Source of the DNA: Dictyostelium discoideum
Lineage: Eukaryota
NCBI GenBank assembly: GCA_000004695.1
Contig: CM000151.3
Location: 6,464,001-6,528,000, forward strand
DNA length: 64,000 nt
Reading direction: 5' to 3'
Numbering within the stretch: position 1 is the stretch's first letter; every line of letters begins with the position of its first letter. Below, piece after piece: positions 8,746 to 21,465 of the stretch. The notes under the pieces are model-generated. The model worked only from the letters and a program-made list of their open reading frames with translations. It had not been told where the DNA came from and ran no database searches. Position numbers and translations under genes: made by a program.

Positions 8746-9008
8746 TTTAATCAAAAGTAATAATACAATTCAAAATTTGAACCAAAAAAAAAAAAAAAAA
8801 AAAAAAAAATAAGTAACTAATAATTGCGTTTTCCGATTCAAAAAAAAAAATGTTGTCTCCAACCAGTACTTGGAAGGCCTGAGGTCGATTTTAATTGCGT
8901 TATTTCGATTCAAAAAAAAAGAATCCAAAAAAAAATCAGATTTTTTTTTTTTGGATTGGATCAAAAAAAAAATCAGATTCAAAAAAAAAAAAAAACATAA
9001 ACTTCAAA

Positions 9009-9086
9009 GATATCGTAGCGAAGTGGTAACGTATTTGACTGAATCAAAGCTCCTAGGAGGCGCAGGTTCGAATCCTGCCGATATCG
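9009..9086 (+). tRNA. type-II (long variable arm) tRNA, most likely tRNA-Ser(UGA), with an irregular anticodon arm that may mark a pseudogene
   Basis: The acceptor stem GATATCG pairs perfectly with CGATATC. The D-loop AAGTGGTAA carries an A box. A long variable arm CTCCTAGGAGGC is present. The T-arm GCAGG-TTCGAAT-CCTGC is identical to eukaryotic tRNA-Ser. The anticodon region ATTTG-ACTGAAT-CAAAG gives TGA in the anticodon position but has C at position 33 and an A.G stem closure. Confidence 0.55.
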
Positions 9087-11928: not shown

Positions 11929-11939
11929 AACTTTTGTTT
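11929..11939. repeat. target-site duplication copy 1 (AACTTTTGTTT) at the poly(A) end of the twin retroelement insertion
   Basis: An identical 11-mer occurs at 18080-18090, immediately beyond the 5' end of the full-length element. Confidence 0.5.
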
Positions 11940-12781
11940 TTTTTTTTTTTTTTTTTTTTTTAATATTGGATTAACAAGATTGATATATGTCCATCTGTGT
12001 TAATACGAGTTTTATTTAATATTTATTTATAGGCTTATCATTTAAGCTGAAGGGTTATTTTAATCATATGAATTGATCAAAAGATATAATATTTGGGAGA
12101 GATGATTCTGGAATACAATAGTAATTAGCTGTTGTTTTTCTTAGCTTGATCGTTGAGGTGAGAAGGATCTTAGGATCTTTGAAATTATTATGGTCTTTTG
12201 CTGATAAGTTTTTCAGATCTTTTGCTTTTTTGATGTATTCTAGAGTGGCCAATTTGTGCCATTTCTTTAGAAGGGAGCTGTATGATAGTGATTCATTTGT
12301 TAAAGGATCTTCACTGTATATTTGATTGCAAATCCAAATCCAAATGTTGTGGAGGATAAGGGCCATTAGGTTTCTATATGCGTATGATCTGGATAGATCA
12401 TAGTCTATTGCTTTATAGTTCCATTCAAAGTATTCTTTGTGGAATCTGTGGTTGGCGTAATCTGCATTCACTTCTTGATCTTTTTTTTGCTGTCGGTGAT
12501 AATTTTGGAGTTATTCTATTAATGAAATTGTTATTTTGCCTAATTCTTGTATGGTGCCAGTTTTTACCTTTGCCTGTGGTAATATAGATGAAATTTTTGA
12601 GTTTATTTATTTTTATGAATTGTTTTGTTTTCTTGCATGAGAAGAACAGGTGACCGTATGGGTCTTTGCTCATATCTTCTTTGCAGAGTGGGCATTGTTT
12701 GTTGTGAAGGTAGTTTATTGGAAGGCATCTGGCATGGAATCTAAACATTGTGTCTCTTGTTTTAGGGTCTTTTATCTTCAG
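11940..12781 (-). mobile_element. 5'-truncated copy of the same TRE3-like non-LTR retrotransposon: its 3'-terminal ~820 bp plus a poly(A) tail
   Basis: 11962-12781 is about 98% identical to 12806-13625. The poly-T run at 11941-11961 is a poly(A) tail on the minus strand. The copy directly abuts the poly(A) of the full-length copy. The ORF fragments at 12064-12471 and 12425-12748 are frame-shifted pieces of the ORF2 C-terminus. Confidence 0.8.
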
Positions 12782-12906
12782 TATTTTTTTTTTTTTTTTT
12801 TTTAATATTGGATTAACAAGATTGATATATGTCCATCTGTGTTAATACGAGTTTTTATTTAATATTTATTTATAGGCTTATCATTTAAGCTGAAGGGTTA
12901 TTTTAA

Positions 12907-15900
12907 TCATATGAATTGATCAAAAGATATAATATTTGGGAGAGATGATTCTGGAATACAATAGTAATTAGCTGTTGTTTTTCTTAGCTTGATCGTTGAG
13001 GTGAGAAGGATCTTAGGATCTTTGAAGTTATTATGGTCTTTTGCTGATAAGTTTTTCAGATCTTTTGCTTTTTTGATGTATTCTAGAGTGGCCAATTTGT
13101 GCCATTTCTTTAGAAGGGAGCTGTATGATAGTGATTCATTTGTTAAAGGATCTTCGCTGTATATTTGATTGCAAATCCAAATCCAAATGTTGTGGAGGAT
13201 AAGGGCCATTAGGTTTCTATATGCGAATGATCTGGTTAGATCATAGTCTATTGCTTTATAGTTCCATTCAAAGTATTCTTTGTGGAATCTGTGGTTGGCG
13301 TAATCTGCATTCACTTCTTGATCTTTTTTGGCTGTCGGTGATAATTTTGGAGTTATTCTATTAATGAAATTGTTATTTTGCCTAATTCTTGTATGGTGCC
13401 AGTTTTTACCTTTGCCTGTGGTAATATAGATGAAATTTTTGAGTTTATTTATTTTTATGAATTGTTTTGTTTTCTTGCATGAGAAGAACAGGTGACCGTA
13501 TGGGTCTTTGCTCATATCTTCTTTGCAGAGTGGGCATTGTTTGTTGTGAAGGTAGTTTATTGGAAGGCATCTGGCATGGAATCTAAACATTGTGTCTCTT
13601 GTTTTAGGGTCTTTTATCTTCAGTATGTTGTTGAAGAGTTGATTATAGCTGTAGCCTCTTAAGTTTAGAGATGATTGGAATTCCGTTTTAGGGATGGTTG
13701 GATTTTGGTCTTGAATTGTGGTATACCATTCTGCCAGTGAAAGTGGTTGTCCATTTTCGTTTTTTATGGATGTGAGATTATTGTTGAAGATTGCTTTTTT
13801 TATTCTTATTTTGTTCCATTCGTCTAAGTTTTCTTTTAGGTATCTGGATGTGAATTTGTTTTTTTGGATCTGATATTCCCAGCTTTTGTGATGAGATGAG
13901 TTTGTTTGTTTGGTTTCTAGTGCTAGGATGAACTGGTTTATGATCCAAAGTTTCTGCGCCAGTTGTCTCAATTCTATATTCCAAATGTTCCAGCCCCCTA
14001 CTTTTAGTGGGTATCTTGCTCTTTTGGTTCTCATTAAATTAATAACTTGAAATCCACTAGCATTTTTGTTGTTTGGTGCCGATAAAAACCATTCGACTAA
14101 TTTATTGATTTGGTTTAATTCCTCTTCCTTAAAGTTCTCTACATATGAATAGTAGGTTAATTTAGAGAGTGCGAATGCTTTGAGGATGTTGGTTTTGGTT
14201 TTGATTGTTGAGTCAGTGGTTTTCCATAGTACTAAGGATGATCTTATTGTGTTTAATATTTCTGGCATTTTTCTTGTTATCCCTTTGCCTGTGAAGAAGT
14301 ATCCCAAGTATCTTTCTGGATTTGTAGATATTGGAATTCTTTGGTTGGTATTGTCTGGGTTGCCTATAAGAATTGATGAAGATTTGTCGATGTTTAGTTT
14401 TGAGGAAGTGGCTTTGCAAAATGAATTGAAGTGTTGTAGTACTAATTCAAGTTGTTGAGAGTCTGGGACCATTGAAGCCGAGTCGTCTGCAAAGCTTTGG
14501 AATTTCTCTCTGTGGTTGCTGTTGTTTAGAGGAAGGCCAGTAATTCGGTCATCTTGTAAAATTTTTCTAGCTAAAGCCTCTATTACAAGGACGAACAGGG
14601 TGGGTGATAGTGGATCTCCTTGTTTAACTCCTCTTTTGATCTCAAAGGGTATAGTAGTTCTACCATTAATTTCAATTCTTGCTTCAGATTTGGTGAGTAG
14701 ATTCATTATCAGGTTGATTATATTGGTTGGAATGTTGATGTGTTGTAGTGATCTGAGTATTGAACCGTGTGAGATCGAGTCAAAAGCTTTTTCGAAATCA
14801 TATAGTGTAATTATTCCGTTAATTCTTTTATCATTACAATAGTTGATTAATTCGTTCATTGATATGATATTATCTATAATGAATCTGCCTGGTACGAAAC
14901 CTTTTTGATTGTGGTTGATCACTTTCGTTAGTATTGGGATTATTCTATTGTTTATTAGTTTTGAGTGGATTTTATATATACAGTTAGCCAGTGTAATTGG
15001 TCTTCTGTTTTTGATTAGTTCGGGGTCTCCCTTTTTAGGTATCGTGATAATGAGGCCTTCTTTGTAATTTTTGCTAATTAGATGAGGATTTCTTAGAGTG
15101 TCGTTGAATGCTGAGGCCAGTATTGGAGCTAGTTTTTCTTTGTGTGTTATGTAGAATAAGTTTGGAATTCCATCTGGGCCTGGAGATTTGTGTGGGTTCA
15201 ATTGTTTTATTACTTCTAGGATCTCTTGTGATGTGAATTCATTTTCAAGGTTGTCCCATGTTGAGTCCCTGGTCACTGTCCAATTTTCCAACATTTCATA
15301 ATGAGATGGTGGGTCATCTTCTTTGTAGTCATAAAGATTTGAGTAATATTTTACGTATTCTTCTTCGATCAATTCCTGTTTGTTGATTGTTCTACCTTGT
15401 GCATCTTTTACTGCGTTGATGGTGAAATCATTGTGTCTTTTCTTGATTCTCGCGGAGATGTACTTGAGTGAGGTTTCTTCGCAATAGTTGTTCAATTCTT
15501 GTTTAAGTTGTTCTTCTCTTTTTTTAGATTCATTTATTGCTGAAAGGGTTGCGAAGGCTTGGTCTTTAAATTCTGTCTCTAGTAGGGAGATTAGATTTTT
15601 GATGTTTGCCTTATTGTTGTAGTCATTTTGTTTTTGAAATTCTGTGTATAGTTGTTTTATTTTGTTTAGTAAGCTGTTGAGTTGAGAGAAGGAAATAGAG
15701 TTATGGTTGGATGACAGCTCCCTTGAATAATCGTTAAGTAGGAAGTCTATTTTCTTAAGCATTATGCTTGAGAGGATTGAGGATTTTTTTAATCTCCATC
15801 TGCGCTTGTTCATCTGTATGTTGGGTAGAGTGAAGGTGGTTGATAGGAAGTTGTGATCTGATAGAGGTATGTCATTAATTTTTGGGGGGATTAGGTTCCT

Positions 15901-16611
15901 TAAGTATAATTGGCTGTAGTTGATTATGCTATTGTTAAGGTATATTCTGTCTAGTCTCCTTTCCAAGATTCTTGTGAGGTTATTGTTTGTGTTGTGTATC
16001 GTTCTTGAGAAGGTGGGTCTTTTATTTAGTTGGTCCATATCCATTAGGTTATTTGAAATTCTGATGGCTTCGATTACTGTGGCCATCTCATCTGGGGATT
16101 GTGTTGTCAAGTTGCCTTGGTCATCATTTGATGTGTGATTGTCATTGAAGTCTAAACAATTGAAGTCGCCTGCTATGATGTCGATGTTTTTTTTAGGGTT
16201 AGACGTTAGGTTGTGGTATTGGTTGTTGAAGTGTTTGTTTAGTGTTGAAGCTAGTGTTTTTCTTTTATCAGGTTGGGCCGGGGCGTATATGGCCAAGATT
16301 CTCGTTGTGGTATCTTTTATTAGAATGTCTGATATTATTAGTCTACCTTCTATTATGAATATTGGTGAGAGTTTTATGTTTTGGTTGTTGTGGTTTAGTA
16401 TTCCTATTCCGTTGCCTCTGTTGGTTGCGCTAATGATGGAGCCAGGAAATAGCTGGTGTGCTTGTGTTGCGTCGGCGTTGAGTTCATTGACTATGGTTAG
16501 TGCCAATGAGTTTGGGGGGGATTGGGATTTGATAAAGTCTGTTTTGTTTTTGAAGGAGGTGTCAGTGCCCCAACCTCTGACATTCCATTGGTTGATTTTG
16601 ATTACTACCAT
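12907..16611 (-). CDS. retrotransposon ORF2: apurinic-type endonuclease, reverse transcriptase and C-terminal Cys-rich (CCHC-like) domain
   Basis: 1234 aa. APE motifs: QWNVRGW, IIAGDFN, RLDRIY, LSDHNF. RT motifs: PITLANCIYKI, QKGFVPGRF, ITLYDFEKAFDSISH, GVKQGDPLSPTLF, SFADDSA (a YxDD variant). C-terminal zinc-knuckle-like segment: CPLCKEDMSKDPYGHLFFSC. Confidence 0.9.
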   Translation of the reverse strand: MVVIKINQWNVRGWGTDTSFKNKTDFIKSQSPPNSLALTIVNELNADATQAHQLFPGSIISATNRGNGIGILNHNNQNIKLSPIFIIEGRLIISDILIKDTTTRILAIYAPAQPDKRKTLASTLNKHFNNQYHNLTSNPKKNIDIIAGDFNCLDFNDNHTSNDDQGNLTTQSPDEMATVIEAIRISNNLMDMDQLNKRPTFSRTIHNTNNNLTRILERRLDRIYLNNSIINYSQLYLRNLIPPKINDIPLSDHNFLSTTFTLPNIQMNKRRWRLKKSSILSSIMLKKIDFLLNDYSRELSSNHNSISFSQLNSLLNKIKQLYTEFQKQNDYNNKANIKNLISLLETEFKDQAFATLSAINESKKREEQLKQELNNYCEETSLKYISARIKKRHNDFTINAVKDAQGRTINKQELIEEEYVKYYSNLYDYKEDDPPSHYEMLENWTVTRDSTWDNLENEFTSQEILEVIKQLNPHKSPGPDGIPNLFYITHKEKLAPILASAFNDTLRNPHLISKNYKEGLIITIPKKGDPELIKNRRPITLANCIYKIHSKLINNRIIPILTKVINHNQKGFVPGRFIIDNIISMNELINYCNDKRINGIITLYDFEKAFDSISHGSILRSLQHINIPTNIINLIMNLLTKSEARIEINGRTTIPFEIKRGVKQGDPLSPTLFVLVIEALARKILQDDRITGLPLNNSNHREKFQSFADDSASMVPDSQQLELVLQHFNSFCKATSSKLNIDKSSSILIGNPDNTNQRIPISTNPERYLGYFFTGKGITRKMPEILNTIRSSLVLWKTTDSTIKTKTNILKAFALSKLTYYSYVENFKEEELNQINKLVEWFLSAPNNKNASGFQVINLMRTKRARYPLKVGGWNIWNIELRQLAQKLWIINQFILALETKQTNSSHHKSWEYQIQKNKFTSRYLKENLDEWNKIRIKKAIFNNNLTSIKNENGQPLSLAEWYTTIQDQNPTIPKTEFQSSLNLRGYSYNQLFNNILKIKDPKTRDTMFRFHARCLPINYLHNKQCPLCKEDMSKDPYGHLFFSCKKTKQFIKINKLKNFIYITTGKGKNWHHTRIRQNNNFINRITPKLSPTAKKDQEVNADYANHRFHKEYFEWNYKAIDYDLTRSFAYRNLMALILHNIWIWICNQIYSEDPLTNESLSYSSLLKKWHKLATLEYIKKAKDLKNLSAKDHNNFKDPKILLTSTIKLRKTTANYYCIPESSLPNIISFDQFI

Positions 16612-17864
16612 TATGAGATGATATCGATCTCCTCTTGGGAGTCGTATAGCTGCGGTTTGGATGGTGAAGGGTAGATACTCTCTATGAAGCTCTCAATGAT
16701 TCCTTTCCTTTCTTTTTTGACAGGTGTCTTAGGGGTGGATGGGATGTAAGGGTTGCTTCTGTTTATTGTTGGTGAGAGTTGGGTGACCTCGTTGTTTGAG
16801 TGGATTTCCTCGTTCTTGCGTTTATGTGATGGAGGGATGTTTGGTGTCTTCTCTCTGTTTTCCGAGGATGAATGGATGTTAGTGCTCGTTTTGTTGGCAT
16901 TGTCTTTTTGGATGGCGTTGGATGTTGTGGTAGTGGTTGTGGTGGGTTTGACAGATTGAGATTCTGCTTGGTTTTTGGGGGGAAGAGGTTGAGAGGACTT
17001 TTTTGATTGGGCTTTTTTCTCTTGGGTTGATTGTTTATCAGACTGATTGTTTGCTGGGTCATTTGTTTGTTGTTGTGGTTTTGGTTGAGAGGATTTGATT
17101 GCTATCCTGTTTTGGGTGTTGGGAGGATCATCTGTCATCTCATCTTCTAATGGTTCTTCCGTGTTGTTTAACTCTACTTTCTTATTTTTCTTTTGTGAGG
17201 AGTAGGTTTTGGTGGCCGTTCTGATGGTAAAGTTGGCGATTTCTGTATTGTGTTGGCCAGATTTCATTTGATCGCCTATTTTGCATTCTATTAGACCGAA
17301 TACTAGGAGGTGGTCGGTGGAGTATATAGTATGGTATATTGCATAGGGTATTTCTTCTGCAAAGGCAGTTTTGATGAGGGCGTCCACTATTCCTGCCTTT
17401 TCTCTTGGAATTCTTACTCTTCCTGTGAGGACGTGGTAGTCTCTACTGGAGGTGATGAAGGTTCCCAATTTGCTTCTATCTCTAATGATATTTAGGAGAG
17501 ATTGTTCGTTTTTAATCATCAGGTGTATCATTTTTCTAGTTCCTTTGCCTATGTATATCTTGTCGATTGGGATATCGTAGTTTGAGAGTGTTTTTCTCAT
17601 TTCTTCTAACCCCATGAGATCCATTTTGGGGAATTCGAGTGTAATTGGGTAGAATCCGTTGTTTTTCTCGTAGGTTGAGAGCGCAGTCATGTTCAATATG
17701 GTCTCGCAGTATTTGGAGATGTCTTTGAGGCCTATTGATAATTTGGGATAGGTCTCCTTTATCTCTGCTGTTTTTGTGGAGAATTCCTTAATGAAGTTCT
17801 CTGATGCCTCGTCCATATGGGTGGAGGGGTTGGCCATTTTAGCCGCGTCTGCGTAGGAATTCAT
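16611..17864 (-). CDS. retrotransposon ORF1: 417 aa with a Pro/Gln/Thr-rich basic C-terminus, typical of a nucleic-acid-binding ORF1 protein
   Basis: The ORF lies directly upstream of ORF2, with its stop overlapping the ORF2 start at 16611. It has no cellular homolog features. It is preceded by a ~215-nt 5' UTR. Confidence 0.75.
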   Translation of the reverse strand: MNSYADAAKMANPSTHMDEASENFIKEFSTKTAEIKETYPKLSIGLKDISKYCETILNMTALSTYEKNNGFYPITLEFPKMDLMGLEEMRKTLSNYDIPIDKIYIGKGTRKMIHLMIKNEQSLLNIIRDRSKLGTFITSSRDYHVLTGRVRIPREKAGIVDALIKTAFAEEIPYAIYHTIYSTDHLLVFGLIECKIGDQMKSGQHNTEIANFTIRTATKTYSSQKKNKKVELNNTEEPLEDEMTDDPPNTQNRIAIKSSQPKPQQQTNDPANNQSDKQSTQEKKAQSKKSSQPLPPKNQAESQSVKPTTTTTTTSNAIQKDNANKTSTNIHSSSENREKTPNIPPSHKRKNEEIHSNNEVTQLSPTINRSNPYIPSTPKTPVKKERKGIIESFIESIYPSPSKPQLYDSQEEIDIIS

Positions 17865-17998
17865 CTCGATGGGATTCCTTTGAATCGGCGATTTGGTAAG
17901 TTATATCTGTAGATCGTGGTGGATTGGTGATTTTTTTTGAAAGATTGGTTAAAATTGACCGAGATTAAGGATAGAAAAGGATGAATTACTTTTCACGT

Positions 17999-18072
17999 GT
18001 ATCTTGTATCCTCTTGATCGCGGTACGGTTTTTTTCGTATCTTGTATCCTCTTGATCGCGGTACGGTTTTTT
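17999..18072. repeat. two tandem copies of a 36-bp unit (ATCTTGTATCCTCTTGATCGCGGTACGGTTTTTT) in the 5' UTR and promoter region of the retroelement
   Basis: Read directly: 18001-18036 and 18040-18072 are identical. 5' repeats are a common feature of TRE-element internal promoters. Confidence 0.8.
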
Positions 18073-18079
18073 CAAACAT

Positions 18080-18090
18080 AACTTTTGTTT
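18080..18090. repeat. target-site duplication copy 2 (AACTTTTGTTT), flanking the 5' end of the full-length element
   Basis: Matches 11929-11939. Confidence 0.5.
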
Positions 18091-18113
18091 AATTAAAAGG
18101 TTGAGCCCAATAA

Positions 18114-18129
18114 GAGAATCGAACCAGGG
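18114..18129 (-). promoter_or_regulatory. ex-B box (GGTTCGATTCTC on the minus strand) about 35 bp downstream of tRNA-Leu, with a T5 Pol III terminator at 18150-18154
   Basis: This is a second copy of the B-box consensus GGTTCGAATCC, outside the tRNA. It matches the Dictyostelium ex-B arrangement. Confidence 0.5.
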
Positions 18130-18158
18130 ACATTATATGGTTTCTTGGGAAAAACTGT

Positions 18159-18239
18159 TGATAAAGGCGAGATTCGAACTCGCGAAGCCGAAGCATAAGA
18201 ACTTGAGTCTTACCCATTTGACCACTCTGGTACTTTACC
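18159..18239 (-). tRNA. tRNA-Leu(CAA), type II, 81 nt, no intron
   Basis: Minus-strand read: GGTAAAG-TA-CCA-GAGTGGTCAAA-TGG-G-TAAGA-CTCAAGT-TCTTA-TGCTTCGGCTTC-GCGAG-TTCGAAT-CTCGC-CTTTATC-A. Acceptor stem is 7 bp with one G.U pair, D-stem is 3 bp, anticodon stem is a perfect 5 bp, the loop has U33 and G37 flanking anticodon CAA, the variable arm is 12 nt, and T-stem and loop are canonical. Confidence 0.85.
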
Positions 18240-18428
18240 TTTTGAAAATAATTGAGAATTACGGTTGATATTGACCACTGTGATACTTTACCTTTTGAAA
18301 CCATGAATTACGGTGAGTCTTACCCATTTGACAACTCTGATACTCTACCTTTTGAAAACCATTGGGAATTACGGTTGATTTTGACCACTTTGGTACTTTA
18401 CCTTTTGAAAACCTTGGCTATATGGGTT
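18203..18428 (-). repeat. four tandem ~50-62 bp units, each carrying the 5' part of tRNA-Leu (positions 1-23 or 1-34, including the A box) plus ~30 bp of its 5' flank. The most proximal unit is the 5' end of the functional gene
   Basis: Plus-strand units (boundaries approximate): 18203-18265, 18266-18314, 18315-18375, 18376-18428. All share ttgacCActNtgNtactttaccttttgaaaa...gaattacggt. Units 1 and 3 also carry gagtcttacccat (tRNA positions 24-34). Confidence 0.75.
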
Positions 18429-18684
18429 AAATAGAACCACCAGGATTGGAATTGAAATTCTGCTTGAATTGTAAATAAAAATGTAATTGAAGTATAATTT
18501 AAGCTTTCAATTGAAAAAATCTCTCTTTTTAGCCTGGCCAGTACTTTATTTGAGAGTTAAAATAAAAGTGTTAAATTCCAATCCTGGGGTTTTCAAGTAA
18601 AAAAATAAAAATATTAAAATATTAAGATTAAAAATCCAATTAAATATTTTCATCTTTTTTATTTTTACCTTTTTTATTATTTTA

Positions 18685-18725
<41 letters not shown>

Positions 18726-18752
18726 GGATTGAGGTTTTAAAATTATAGTTGG

Positions 18753-19467
18753 TTAATCTTGAGTTCTATCTATACAAAGCTTAACTAAAGATATAAAAGC
18801 ATCTTCAATGTTAATTGCCTGTTTACACTTATTTCTTTGAATGTAATATCCAAAGAATCGGCAAATTCTTGGGCCAAAAAAGGGTCAACCACTTTTCGTG
18901 AGACTAAATCATTTTTATTTCCAATTACCATTTTAATGACATTTTCATTTGCATATCTTTCGATATCTTGTATCCATGACGGAACATTTTCAAATGATCT
19001 TTGATCTGTAACATCATAAACTATAATAACTCCATGGCAACCTCTATAATGTGAATTATGAACTCAAAATCGATTTTGTCCAGCCGTATCCAAAATGTGA
19101 AGTTTTATTGGTTTACCTTCGATATAAACTGTCTTTATATTAAATTCAATACCGATTGTTGTTAAATGTGTTTCAGTAAATGTATCATCTGCAATTCTTA
19201 ATAAAATATTTGTTTTACCTTTTTTTATTTTTTTATTTTAAAAAATAATTAATAATTAATAATAATTTATATATTATTTATTATTTATTACAGTAAATAT
19301 TTACCAACTCCACTATCACCTGCAAGTGCAAATTTAAATATACAAAAAAAAAAAATCTATATTAATTTTTTTTTTTTTTGTCGAAAGAAAAAAAAAAATG
19401 AAAAAATTCATTGAATAATAAGTTGGCATACAAATAAAGAAATTCTTACTCATATTCTTTACTCATT
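18753..19467 (-). pseudogene. Rab-family small GTPase gene of three exons, apparently inactivated by an in-frame TGA and a 1-nt frameshift
   Basis: Exon 1 encodes MSKEYE and ends at a GTAAGA donor near 19467-19450. The next exon encodes ...ALAGDSGVG (P-loop) and ends at a GTAAAT donor. The last exon encodes [103 protein letters not shown]...[15 protein letters not shown] frameshift then precedes [23 protein letters not shown]. The TGA falls where other Rabs have Arg (DTAGQERFR). No ORF of 60 aa or more survives here on the six-frame track. Confidence 0.55.
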
Positions 19468-19784
19468 TTAATTGTATATTTTATAAAAATTATATAACAT
19501 TTTTTTTTTTCATAGACATATCAAAAAGAAAATAAAAAATAAAAAAATAAAAAAAAAAATTCATTGAATAATAAGTTGGCAGATATATACAAAAGAAAAT
19601 GAAAAATAAAAAAAAAAAAAAAAAATTTATTGAATAATAAGTTGGCAGATATATACAAAAATTTCAGCGTTAAGGTGGTGAAAAGTAATTTTATTCCAAC
19701 TGGTCAGCTCCTCACCCTTATTGAATAAACATGAAATTCAAAAAGTATAAAAAACATTGATTTATGTGATTATCAGAATTGAAT

Positions 19785-20403: not shown

Positions 20404-20868
20404 ATGTCAAACTTTCAAAATCAAGAAATTAATATTGGTTCGGTTGTACTTGGTGATAGATCATTAAGTAATGGTCAATATGGTGATAAAAAGAGTATTC
20501 GTCATGTTGATTTTGATGTACCATTTTCAGGTATTCCAAAAGTTTCTTTAGGAATTAATTTCTTGGATGCATCATCTTCAGAACAAATTCGTATTCGTTG
20601 TATTGCTCAAAATATAACATCAAAAGGTATGGACATTTCATTCACAACATGGAATGATAATACTGTCTATGATGTAGCAGTTGATTATGTTGCTATTTAT
20701 AATCCAAAATTTGGAAATTCAAATAATAAAAATAATAATGATAATAATATTAGTAATACAAATACAAACCAACAAAGAAATCAATATAATGATAATGAAA
20801 ATAATAATTATCAACAACAAAGCCAACAAAGTTATTATGAAAATACAAATAATAATAACAATAATAAA

Positions 20869-20926
<58 letters not shown>

Positions 20927-21465
20927 GTGAAGATAAACAACAACAACATCAACAACAAGGAAGATATCAAGAAAATAACAATTATAATAGAAATGATAAT
21001 GATAATGATTATCAATCTCAATCTCAATCTCAATCTCAATCTCAATCTCAATCTCAATCTCAATCACAATTACAATCAAATAATTTTAATGGTAAAAATG
21101 TAAATATTAGATCAAATAAATTTAATAATTATATTAGAGATAATAATGGTAAAGGTGATATGTCACAAACTGCAAGAAATAATGAAACATGGATAATAAC
21201 ATCTGCCAATAATAATGGAGATTTATTTTTTATTCATAATAGATATAATCATTATCTTTCAAGTAATGGTGATAGAGTATTGGTTGGTGAAAAGAATGAT
21301 TCTTCAATTTGGAAGATTTCACAACGTAGACAAGGTGTTTACTCAATTCAAAACTATAAAAATTCAAATTATCTAAGTTCAACTGATAGAAATGAATTAA
21401 AAACAAATGTTAAAGTTGTAAATTCTTGGGAAGAATTTAATTTTAATTTTGTTCAAGATTCTTGA
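20404..21465 (+). CDS. H-type lectin domain protein: N-terminal H-lectin domain, N/Q-rich linker with (SQ)n, C-terminal fascin-like beta-trefoil-type domain
   Basis: 353-aa single-exon ORF. The N-terminus (VDFDVPFSGIPKVSLGINFLDASSSEQIRIRCIAQNITSKGMDISFTTWNDNTVYDVAVDYVAI) matches the Helix pomatia agglutinin and discoidin H-type lectin pattern (..LD.....R......NIT..GF......TW....VY....W.AI). The C-terminus (WIITSANNNGDLFFIHNRYNHYLSSNGDRVLVGEKNDSSIWKI...YSIQNYKNSNYLS...VVNSWEEFNF) is trefoil-like. Confidence 0.8.

Follow-up and report, generated by a model that had tools for sequence, protein, structure and literature searches.

A copy-number-variable tandem array of tRNA-Leu(CAA) 5' halves upstream of the intact gene in Dictyostelium discoideum

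Structure of the tRNA-Leu(CAA) locus

The window (the whole stretch of DNA analysed here) comprises 64,000 nucleotides of contig CM000151.3 of D. discoideum (GCA_000004695.1, positions 6,464,001 to 6,528,000 of the forward strand) and has a GC content of about 20%. ARAGORN assigned an intact tRNA-Leu(CAA) gene of 81 nt to positions 18159-18239 on the minus strand; this gene scored 54.4 bits against Rfam RF00005 and is read from 18239 to 18159, the array on its upstream side lying at higher coordinates. The 25 nt of its own 5' flank (18240-18264, minus strand, read from 18264 to 18240), CCGTAATTCTCAATTATTTTCAAAA, end with a TTCAAAA-type box, which is found directly 5' of most tRNA genes sampled from Dictyostelium (18 5' flanks). 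The gene is followed by a T5 terminator (18150-18154), and a motif search located both its internal B box, AGTTCGAATCT (18170-18180, minus strand), and an external B box (ex-B box), GGTTCGATTCT (18115-18125, minus strand), 34 nt downstream of the gene; ex-B boxes are known at about two-thirds of D. discoideum tRNA genes (PMC3159450). Read along the minus strand, the locus presents in this order a foldback element, three partial tRNA units (U1, U2 and U3), the flank of the gene, the tRNA-Leu(CAA) gene as the final and complete unit of the array, the T5 terminator and the ex-B box.

The initial annotation had described here an array of partial 5' copies of the tRNA with their flanks, in which shorter and longer forms alternate and only the last unit is complete. 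This description was confirmed by TRF, by reading of the individual units and by blastn-short, and could be refined in that the interval 18203-18428 consists of the first 36 nt of the minus-strand tRNA-Leu(CAA) gene together with the sequence upstream of it. U1, the outermost upstream unit (18375-18427, minus strand), is a short form of 53 bp, composed of a 25-nt flank, ACCCATATAGCCAAGGTTTTCAAAA, and a 28-nt tRNA-like part, GGTAAAGTACCAAAGTGGTCAAA followed by ATCAA. U2 (18314-18374, minus strand) is a long form of 61 bp, composed of a 25-nt flank, CCGTAATTCCCAATGGTTTTCAAAA, and nt 1-36 of the tRNA, GGTAGAGTATCAGAGTTGTCAAATGGGTAAGACTCA; it ends inside the anticodon (...GACTCA), where linear nt 36 corresponds, by a count along the sequence, to base two of the anticodon (canonical position 35). 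U3 (18265-18313, minus strand) is again a short form, of 49 bp, with a 21-nt flank, CCGTAATTCATGGTTTCAAAA, then tRNA nt 1-23, GGTAAAGTATCACAGTGGTCAAT, and ATCAA. The end of the short form at about nt 23 stands as first described, with the addition of the 5-nt ATCAA tail, but that of the long form had to be moved from nt 34 to nt 36.

In all three partial units the 5' flank, of about 21-25 nt, ends in TTTCAAAA, so that each unit starts 21-25 nt upstream of its +1. The units abut directly, ...TCAA or ...CTCA being followed immediately by CCGTAATT, and the junction TCA(A)/CCGTAATT is common to long and short units; no retroelement sequence, poly(A) or untemplated filler was found at the unit junctions. 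The flank of U1, designated F0, is distinguished from the inner flanks by an insertion of 5-8 nt. A DUSE-like motif, CCCA, was also noticed in the unit flanks, and this is a very short motif.

TRF reported the array at 18204-18410 with a period of 110 (1.9 copies, 90% matches, score 351) and, as a second solution, with a period of 53 (3.7 copies), and repeat finding gave two 97-nt dimer copies with 91% identity. When the tRNA alone was searched with blastn-short against 3 kb of sequence (1.5 kb on either side of the gene), every unit aligned to its 5' part, as had been proposed: U2 to nt 1-36 (33/36, 91.7%, E 7e-10), U1 to nt 1-23 (22/23, 95.7%, E 7e-7) and U3 to nt 1-22 (20/22, 90.9%, E 7e-4). 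Addition of the flank to the query changed the E-values of the units to 2e-20, 4e-12 and 2e-8. The units of the window array differ from each other by 9% or more; variants by which they can be told apart are G5, T10 and T17 in U2 and T10, C13 and T23 in U3.

Every partial unit has a G at +1 and an A box at +8. The A boxes of U1 (TACCAAAGTGG), U2 (TATCAGAGTTG) and U3 (TATCACAGTGG) each show one mismatch to TRRYNNARYNG, the A-box motif of D. discoideum (PMC5391098), as does the A box of the real gene. No match to the B box GGTTCGANTCY with up to 2 mismatches was found in 18240-18430, and the earlier reading of the units as having an A box and no B box is therefore upheld. Efficient transcription is associated with a spacing of 30-60 bp between A box and B box (PMC5391098); the partial units lack a B box of the type GGTTCGANTCC at 30-60 bp 3' of their A box, and the B box closest to the A box of U3 belongs to the real gene, at a distance of about 105 bp. 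Neither ARAGORN nor a permissive Rfam search (E <= 1) detected a second tRNA in 17900-18800, where the partial units registered no cloverleaf and the only other Rfam match was a meaningless sub-threshold IRES match inside the neighbouring retrotransposon. Judged from their sequence, the partial units are dead as tRNA genes, being without a B box, a 3' half and a terminator of their own.

Two further elements flank the array and the gene. A foldback element of about 160 bp bearing terminal inverted repeats (18433-18592) abuts the 5' edge of the array; its 22-nt arms lie at 18435-18456 and 18571-18592, and its DNA fold has a z-score of -3.2 relative to shuffled sequences. Of the features by which a MITE or foldback transposon is recognized, the terminal inverted repeats are present, but dispersed copies with target-site duplications were not found: no target-site duplication was definable by eye, and the arm motif CCAGGATTGGAATT, with up to 2 substitutions allowed, occurred only at the tRNA-Leu(CAA) locus in about 400 kb. 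On the other side of the gene, outside the array and given here as context only, a block of TRE3-type non-LTR retrotransposon sequence (11937-18075, minus strand) consists of a full-length copy and a 5'-truncated tandem copy. Runs of poly-T occupy 11937-11961 and 12784-12803, and about 84 bp separate the tRNA gene from the 5' end of the block on its downstream side. The TRE3 ORF2 contains RVT_1 and a weak match to Exo_endo_phos (endonuclease family) below the Pfam cut-off, and the homologues of ORF1 and ORF2 are D. discoideum repeat proteins; an exact-protein look-up with the window TRE3 ORF1 matched no record.

Distribution among assemblies and tRNA loci

The same locus was fetched from GCA_054883475.1 by means of the neighbouring H-lectin gene (window 20404-21465), and orthologues of the H-lectin protein led us to it in five more assemblies (L002-L006). 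The array of GCA_054883475.1 is identical to that of the window base for base, with three partial units. Over 11 kb, 37 aligned positions differ between the two, none of them in the array: they fall within TRE3, within low-complexity DNA at 19.8-20.1 kb and in the length of one poly-T run. The array with 900 bp around it is identical except for this poly-T length. This pattern of differences identifies GCA_054883475.1 as a different assembly of the lineage of the window, and the array is not confined to one assembly, a possibility that the initial annotation had left to be checked.

Two other assemblies labelled D. discoideum carry arrays of different lengths. In GCA_054859355.1 (L002) one short 53-bp unit, GGTAAAGTTTCAGAGTGGTCAAAACCAA plus flank, precedes tRNA-Leu(CAA), and in GCA_054859385.1 (L003) there are four short units with spacings of 53, 53, 53 and 52. 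The tRNA-Leu(CAA) gene is present with no partial unit in D. cf. discoideum (L004) and D. citrinum (L006), and it is missing at the orthologous locus of D. dimigraforme (L005). From GCA_054883475.1 and L002 to L004 the tRNA-Leu(CAA) sequence is identical. Neighbouring genes share about 92.5% (L002), 91.4% (L003) and 89.4% (L004) identity with those of the window, that is, L002 and L003 have diverged from the window by about 8%. This divergence, taken together with the distribution among lineages, indicates that the array is old and restricted to a sub-clade of D. discoideum.

The tRNA-like part of the single unit of L002 is identical (23/23) to those of the third and fourth units of L003, which are themselves identical over nt 1-23, and AC is replaced by TT at nt 9-10 in these three units. 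All short units end with A(T/C)CAA, a tail that simple derivation from the tRNA does not explain. The 23/23 identity and the shared tail point to the short unit being a shared derived form of single origin. The long unit was found only in the window lineage; U2 has T at nt 10 like most partial units, from which it is probably an old unit and not a fresh copy of the gene.

We also compared the flanks of the units. Over the last 16 nt, the flank of a partial unit agrees with that of its own gene at 14-15 of 16 positions within a lineage (15/16 for the L002 unit, 14/16 for the third unit of L003) and at 9-13 of 16 between lineages. In L003 the box of the flank is TTTCATAG, having drifted to TTTCA(T/C)AG, and elsewhere it is TTTCAAAA. 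As the likeness is higher within than between lineages, these comparisons point to concerted evolution of the unit flanks and to an unstable array. In flanks aligned and read by eye, the F0 flank of L003 has an insertion at the same place as the flank of U1, which suggests that the two outermost flanks correspond to each other.

A foldback stands beside the first unit in all three array-bearing lineages, with differing internal lengths and with the 5' boundary of the repeat within about 10 bp. That of L002 (8939-9124 of its locus) has 40-nt arms, and that of L003 (7991-8111 of its locus) forms an almost perfect palindrome, in which a spacer of 17 nt separates arms of 52 nt. The arm motif was not found at the outgroup loci without the array. 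The TRE3 block is absent from both L002 and L003, as seen by empty-site comparison.

Other tRNA loci were obtained as 13 further loci of D. discoideum and D. citrinum beside tRNA genes, fetched through members of the TRE3 ORF1 cluster. In the window and the 19 loci (L001-L019), ARAGORN made 28 tRNA calls; the Dictyostelium sample amounts to about 400 kb and contains a single tRNA-Leu(CAA) locus. No partial copy was detected by blastn-short within 1.5 kb of any of about 17 other distinct tRNA genes (Ser, Leu-AAG, Asn, Tyr, Ala, Arg, Lys, Val, Cys and Thr; roughly a dozen of these genes were reached through an adjacent TRE3 copy), and the sole further match near the sampled genes was a complete inverted tRNA-Thr pair. 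Likewise, no copy of a unit was found away from the tRNA-Leu(CAA) locus in the window or in L001-L019. The array is peculiar to one locus in this sample, in agreement with the initial annotation, which did not recognize it as standard for tRNA loci of Dictyostelium. A metagenome scan with the short-unit junction CAGAGTGGTCAAAAYCAACC gave six matches, which lie in contigs of 44-55% GC with unrelated surroundings and were dismissed as chance matches.

Origin of the array

We consider it probable that the array is a locus-specific minisatellite of variable copy number, which originated by tandem duplication with recombination or slippage; most likely it is a harmless by-product of DNA duplication and not a working genetic element. 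Head-to-tail units within about 10-100 bp (53, 61 and 49 bp), copy numbers varying among lineages (0, 1, 3 and 4) and concerted evolution, by which a minisatellite or VNTR is recognized, are all found here. A tandem duplication of about 61 bp, spanning the last ~25 bp of the 5' flank and the first ~36 nt of tRNA-Leu(CAA), would have left a truncated copy upstream and the intact gene downstream, because the downstream copy is automatically intact when a duplication crosses the 5' end of the gene. The 53-bp short unit, with nt 1-23 of the tRNA and ATCAA, would be the result of an internal deletion of about 9 nt, and the units may have expanded, contracted and been homogenized through unequal sister-chromatid exchange, replication slippage or gene conversion, with 1, 3 and 4 partial units in the three D. 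discoideum lineages as the outcome. The order short, long, short, gene needs more than one simple unequal exchange; several multi-step (two-step) paths fit it, and none is uniquely supported. In this account, recombination or slippage as the mechanism, neutrality and the succession of events are inferences, as is any part played by the foldback or the Pol III complex in placing the breakpoints. The shared junction and the proximity of the foldback could reflect site-specific breakage rather than random duplication.

The foldback might have set the breakpoints of the duplication. Either stalling of replication at a hairpin or a double-strand break, in the stretch from the foldback to the Pol III-bound tRNA gene, would have triggered the first duplication and would drive the continuing instability; alternatively, the trigger would have been a side effect of a foldback transposon inserting or excising. 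This proposal, which we regard as rather unlikely, would refine the trigger of the minisatellite explanation and not replace it. The constant position of the foldback against the first unit in the three array-bearing lineages speaks for such a role, as do its folding beyond shuffled sequences, the near-perfect palindrome of L003 and the lack of the arm motif at outgroup loci that lack the array. However, the association concerns a single locus, no target-site duplication could be made out, the restriction of the arm motif to this locus in about 400 kb leaves a mobile family unsupported, and the array and the foldback could simply share an ancestor. It is a long shot that the boundaries of the repeat did not arise by chance and mark a fragile interval, delimited by the Pol III complex, that extends from the foldback to the TFIIIB/TFIIIC-bound 5' half of the gene and duplicates recurrently, and that the resulting A-box-only modules might position TFIIIC-tauA or TFIIIB; if this were true, the modules would change the choice of start site, the output of tRNA-Leu(CAA) or the landing of TRE5-A and DGLT-A.

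The initial annotation had offered another source of the duplicated sequence, namely that the units are scars of repeated aborted retroelement integration or of repair at a Pol III-targeted hotspot. We considered this idea for TRE5 and DGLT-A; one version of it would assume very long target-site duplications with inserts of zero length. The locus is indeed a proven retrotransposon target, as the nearby TRE3 block attests, and units of 49-61 bp are roughly comparable in length to the integration distance of TRE5, which is about 50 bp upstream of +1, that of DGLT-A being about 15 bp (PMC5006619). A retrotransposon footprint would be recognized by element sequence between the copies and by a breakpoint at the distance of the family concerned, and neither was observed: element sequence, poly(A) and filler are all absent from the junctions, and the boundary at -25 matches neither about -50 nor about -15. 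In addition, L002 and L003 have arrays without TRE3, about 17 other sampled tRNA genes have no such scars, and the minisatellite-like variation in copy number (1, 3 and 4 units) with concerted evolution is explicable by recombination alone. On the grounds of the clean junctions, the -25 boundary and the arrays without TRE3, aborted integration was rejected as the leading explanation, and we regard it as very improbable. Equally little credence is given to a function of the array in cis, in which the modules of 5' box, +1 G and A box would recruit TFIIIC tauA or TFIIIB, provide upstream starts yielding a 5'-extended pre-tRNA-Leu, or act as decoys that shift or absorb TRE5-A and DGLT-A from the real promoter. 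Each unit does keep the TTTCAAAA box, the +1 G and an A box equal to that of the gene, the array has been retained in three lineages about 8% apart, and the A box is known to position TFIIIC/TFIIIB and the integration of TRE5-A (PMC5391098). Even so, the nearest partial A box is separated from the B box of the gene by more than the 30-60 bp mentioned above, neither the copy number nor the form of the units is conserved, the L003 flanks have drifted from the common box, and the outgroups manage without an array. There is next to no probability that a mis-expanded or mis-collapsed repeat in the assembly accounts for the array: only the general risk attached to tandem repeats favours it, the units differ by at least 9% and are therefore easy to assemble, and homologous arrays with other copy numbers exist in two further assemblies. 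As the independent assembly GCA_054883475.1 has an identical array, an assembly artefact is excluded for practical purposes.

Several other origins were considered and rejected. A Dada-type tRNA-targeting DNA transposon (PMC3706591) and att-site fragments of bacterial style were both dismissed, since the units have no insert between them and the element lies outside the gene. A tRNA-derived SINE was discarded because the units are without a B box and have no copies away from the locus in the window and L001-L019. The end of the long unit in the anticodon loop served as a lead for an RNA-mediated origin, that is, a reverse-transcribed 5' tRNA half. The upstream flank of 21-25 nt carried by the units exceeds a typical Pol III leader. 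The RNA-mediated origin was rejected because of this flank and because there is no poly(A) or 3' signature.

Significance and relation to known systems

The array is a small curiosity, a polymorphic minisatellite made from the 5' half of a Pol III gene in the D. discoideum complex, and by itself it opens no long-standing question. Annotators should take neither the partial copies nor the gene models that overlap them for genes, and the copy number could become a length marker separating lineages of the D. discoideum complex. The locus also provides a natural allelic series, in which one tRNA gene has 0, 1, 3 or 4 extra modules of 5' box and A box without B box, and this series is useful for studying the positioning of TFIIIC/TFIIIB and the target choice of TRE5-A and DGLT-A. 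In the open-access literature we found no published description of a minisatellite made of a tRNA 5' half and its leader in Dictyostelium, and the supplement of a 2026 paper on tRNA expression contained nothing on Leu-CAA.

The immediate flanks of Pol III genes are the common niche of TRE5, TRE3, DGLT-A and Skipper-2 (PMC5006619, PMC3159450). Unlike these tRNA-gene-targeted retrotransposons of Dictyostelium, the array contains no element sequence, and its boundary at -25 and its unit length do not match the published distances. Pol III promoter-like loci of D. discoideum have likewise been multiplied, by segmental duplication; those loci possess both boxes, A and B, spaced as in a tRNA gene, and are targets of TRE5-A, whereas the array units are without a B box. 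The tRNA fragments associated with integrative elements mostly come from the 3' part, with kilobases of element between fragment and gene. Here, in contrast, we see 5' fragments with upstream flank, which abut each other directly with nothing inserted. What the array has in common with the tRNA gene fragments of prokaryotes (PMC9897764) is the presence of non-functional partial tRNA copies.

Among amoebozoans, the tRNA arrays of Entamoeba (PMC2652664) similarly place tRNA genes within tandem DNA that varies among strains; each unit there holds as many as five tRNA genes, all of them complete, and the arrays occupy more than 10% of the genome. Our array differs in having 5' fragments as repeats and one complete gene, as its last unit, at one locus in the sample, so that the Entamoeba type, with at least one complete tRNA gene per unit, does not describe it. 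The closest likeness is to a minisatellite or VNTR, with which the array shares head-to-tail units of 49-61 bp, a number that varies among lineages (1, 3 and 4), homogenization within a lineage and repeated copies without the integrity of a coding or RNA gene. Unlike an anonymous minisatellite, it repeats the promoter-proximal half of a Pol III gene, with the flank box, the +1 G, the A box, the D arm and a portion of the anticodon arm, and it terminates in a functional gene.

Elements flanking the tRNA-Leu gene

A block of TRE3-type non-LTR retrotransposon sequence (11937-18075, minus strand) lies ~84 bp downstream of the intact tRNA-Leu(CAA) gene (18159-18239, minus strand), and is composed of two tandem copies, first a full-length one and then one truncated at its 5' end. 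The full-length copy carries ORF1 (16611-17864) and ORF2 (12907-16611), both on the minus strand, and the poly(A) tails of the block are seen as plus-strand poly-T at 11937-11961 and 12784-12803. At the 5' end of the element we found a perfect 38-bp tandem duplication (17999-18072), two copies of GTATCTTGTATCCTCTTGATCGCGGTACGGTTTTTT, which is presumably a repeated 5'-UTR module. The entire block is missing from the orthologous loci of two other genomes labelled D. discoideum, L002 (GCA_054859355.1) and L003 (GCA_054859385.1), and the site there is empty.

Directly upstream of the array of partial tRNA-Leu 5' copies (18265-18427) stands a foldback or TIR element, found at 18433-18592 in the window, 8939-9124 in L002 and 7991-8111 in L003. 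The element and its arms differ in length by lineage, the arms measuring 22 nt in the window, 40 nt in L002 and 52 nt in L003, where the element forms a near-perfect palindrome. No further occurrence of the arm motif was found in ~400 kb, and the element may be either a MITE (e.g. thug-like) or a local palindrome.

Divergence of lineages and neighbouring genes

The neighbouring genes (22.5-26.5 kb of the window) are only ~91-92.5% identical between the window and L002 or L003. This divergence is far above what would be expected within one species, and it suggests that the D. discoideum complex contains cryptic species.

Upstream of the array, a Rab/Ras-like GTPase gene (18740-19470, minus strand) has an in-frame TGA and a disrupted C-terminus in the window; its D. 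citrinum orthologue reads through (..AGQERFRVHNNSQYRG..), and the gene looks like a pseudogene in the window lineage. Automatic gene models that extend across the array or across the tRNA, as in L001 (GCA_054883475.1, D. discoideum) and L004 (D. cf. discoideum), are probably incorrect.

A degenerate tRNA-Ser(TGA)

The tRNA-Ser(TGA) of the window (9009-9086, plus strand) is degenerate when compared with its orthologues in L002-L006, which include D. dimigraforme (L005) and D. citrinum (L006), and with a paralogue at another Dictyostelium locus (L011): it has lost 2 nt in the D loop and 2 nt in the anticodon loop, and bears several substitutions. It may correspond to the D. discoideum Ser-TGA pseudogene flagged by tRNAscan-SE (PMC13063481). 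Upstream of it, at 8760-9000, are several short repeated pieces with terminal A-runs (ATTGCGTT..CGATTCAAAAAAAAA; ATCAGATTCAAAAA), which may be leftovers of earlier insertions at this tRNA.

Comparison with other tRNA genes and a known promoter element

At the position corresponding to the window gene, D. citrinum has a tRNA-Leu(CAA) (L006 8379-8459) whose acceptor stem is wholly different (GACACGG...CCGTGTC versus GGTAAAG...CTTTATC); the remainder of the tRNA is identical. Either the whole stem has been exchanged in a compensatory manner, or a different copy of the gene has taken the place of this one.

The flanks of two partial units carry a minus-strand CCCA core (18363-18366 in U2, 18418-18421 in U1) that is reminiscent of the DUSE promoter element. 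In ncRNA genes the DUSE normally precedes the start site by ~60 nt, a distance near the unit period of the array. The motif is too short for a firm assignment, and the likeness is probably a coincidence. Another Dictyostelium locus (L019) has two identical tRNA-Thr(AGT) genes, 17256-17327 (plus) and 17732-17803 (minus), arranged head-to-head with ~400 bp between them; these are complete and inverted, in contrast to the copies at the Leu locus, which are partial and in tandem.
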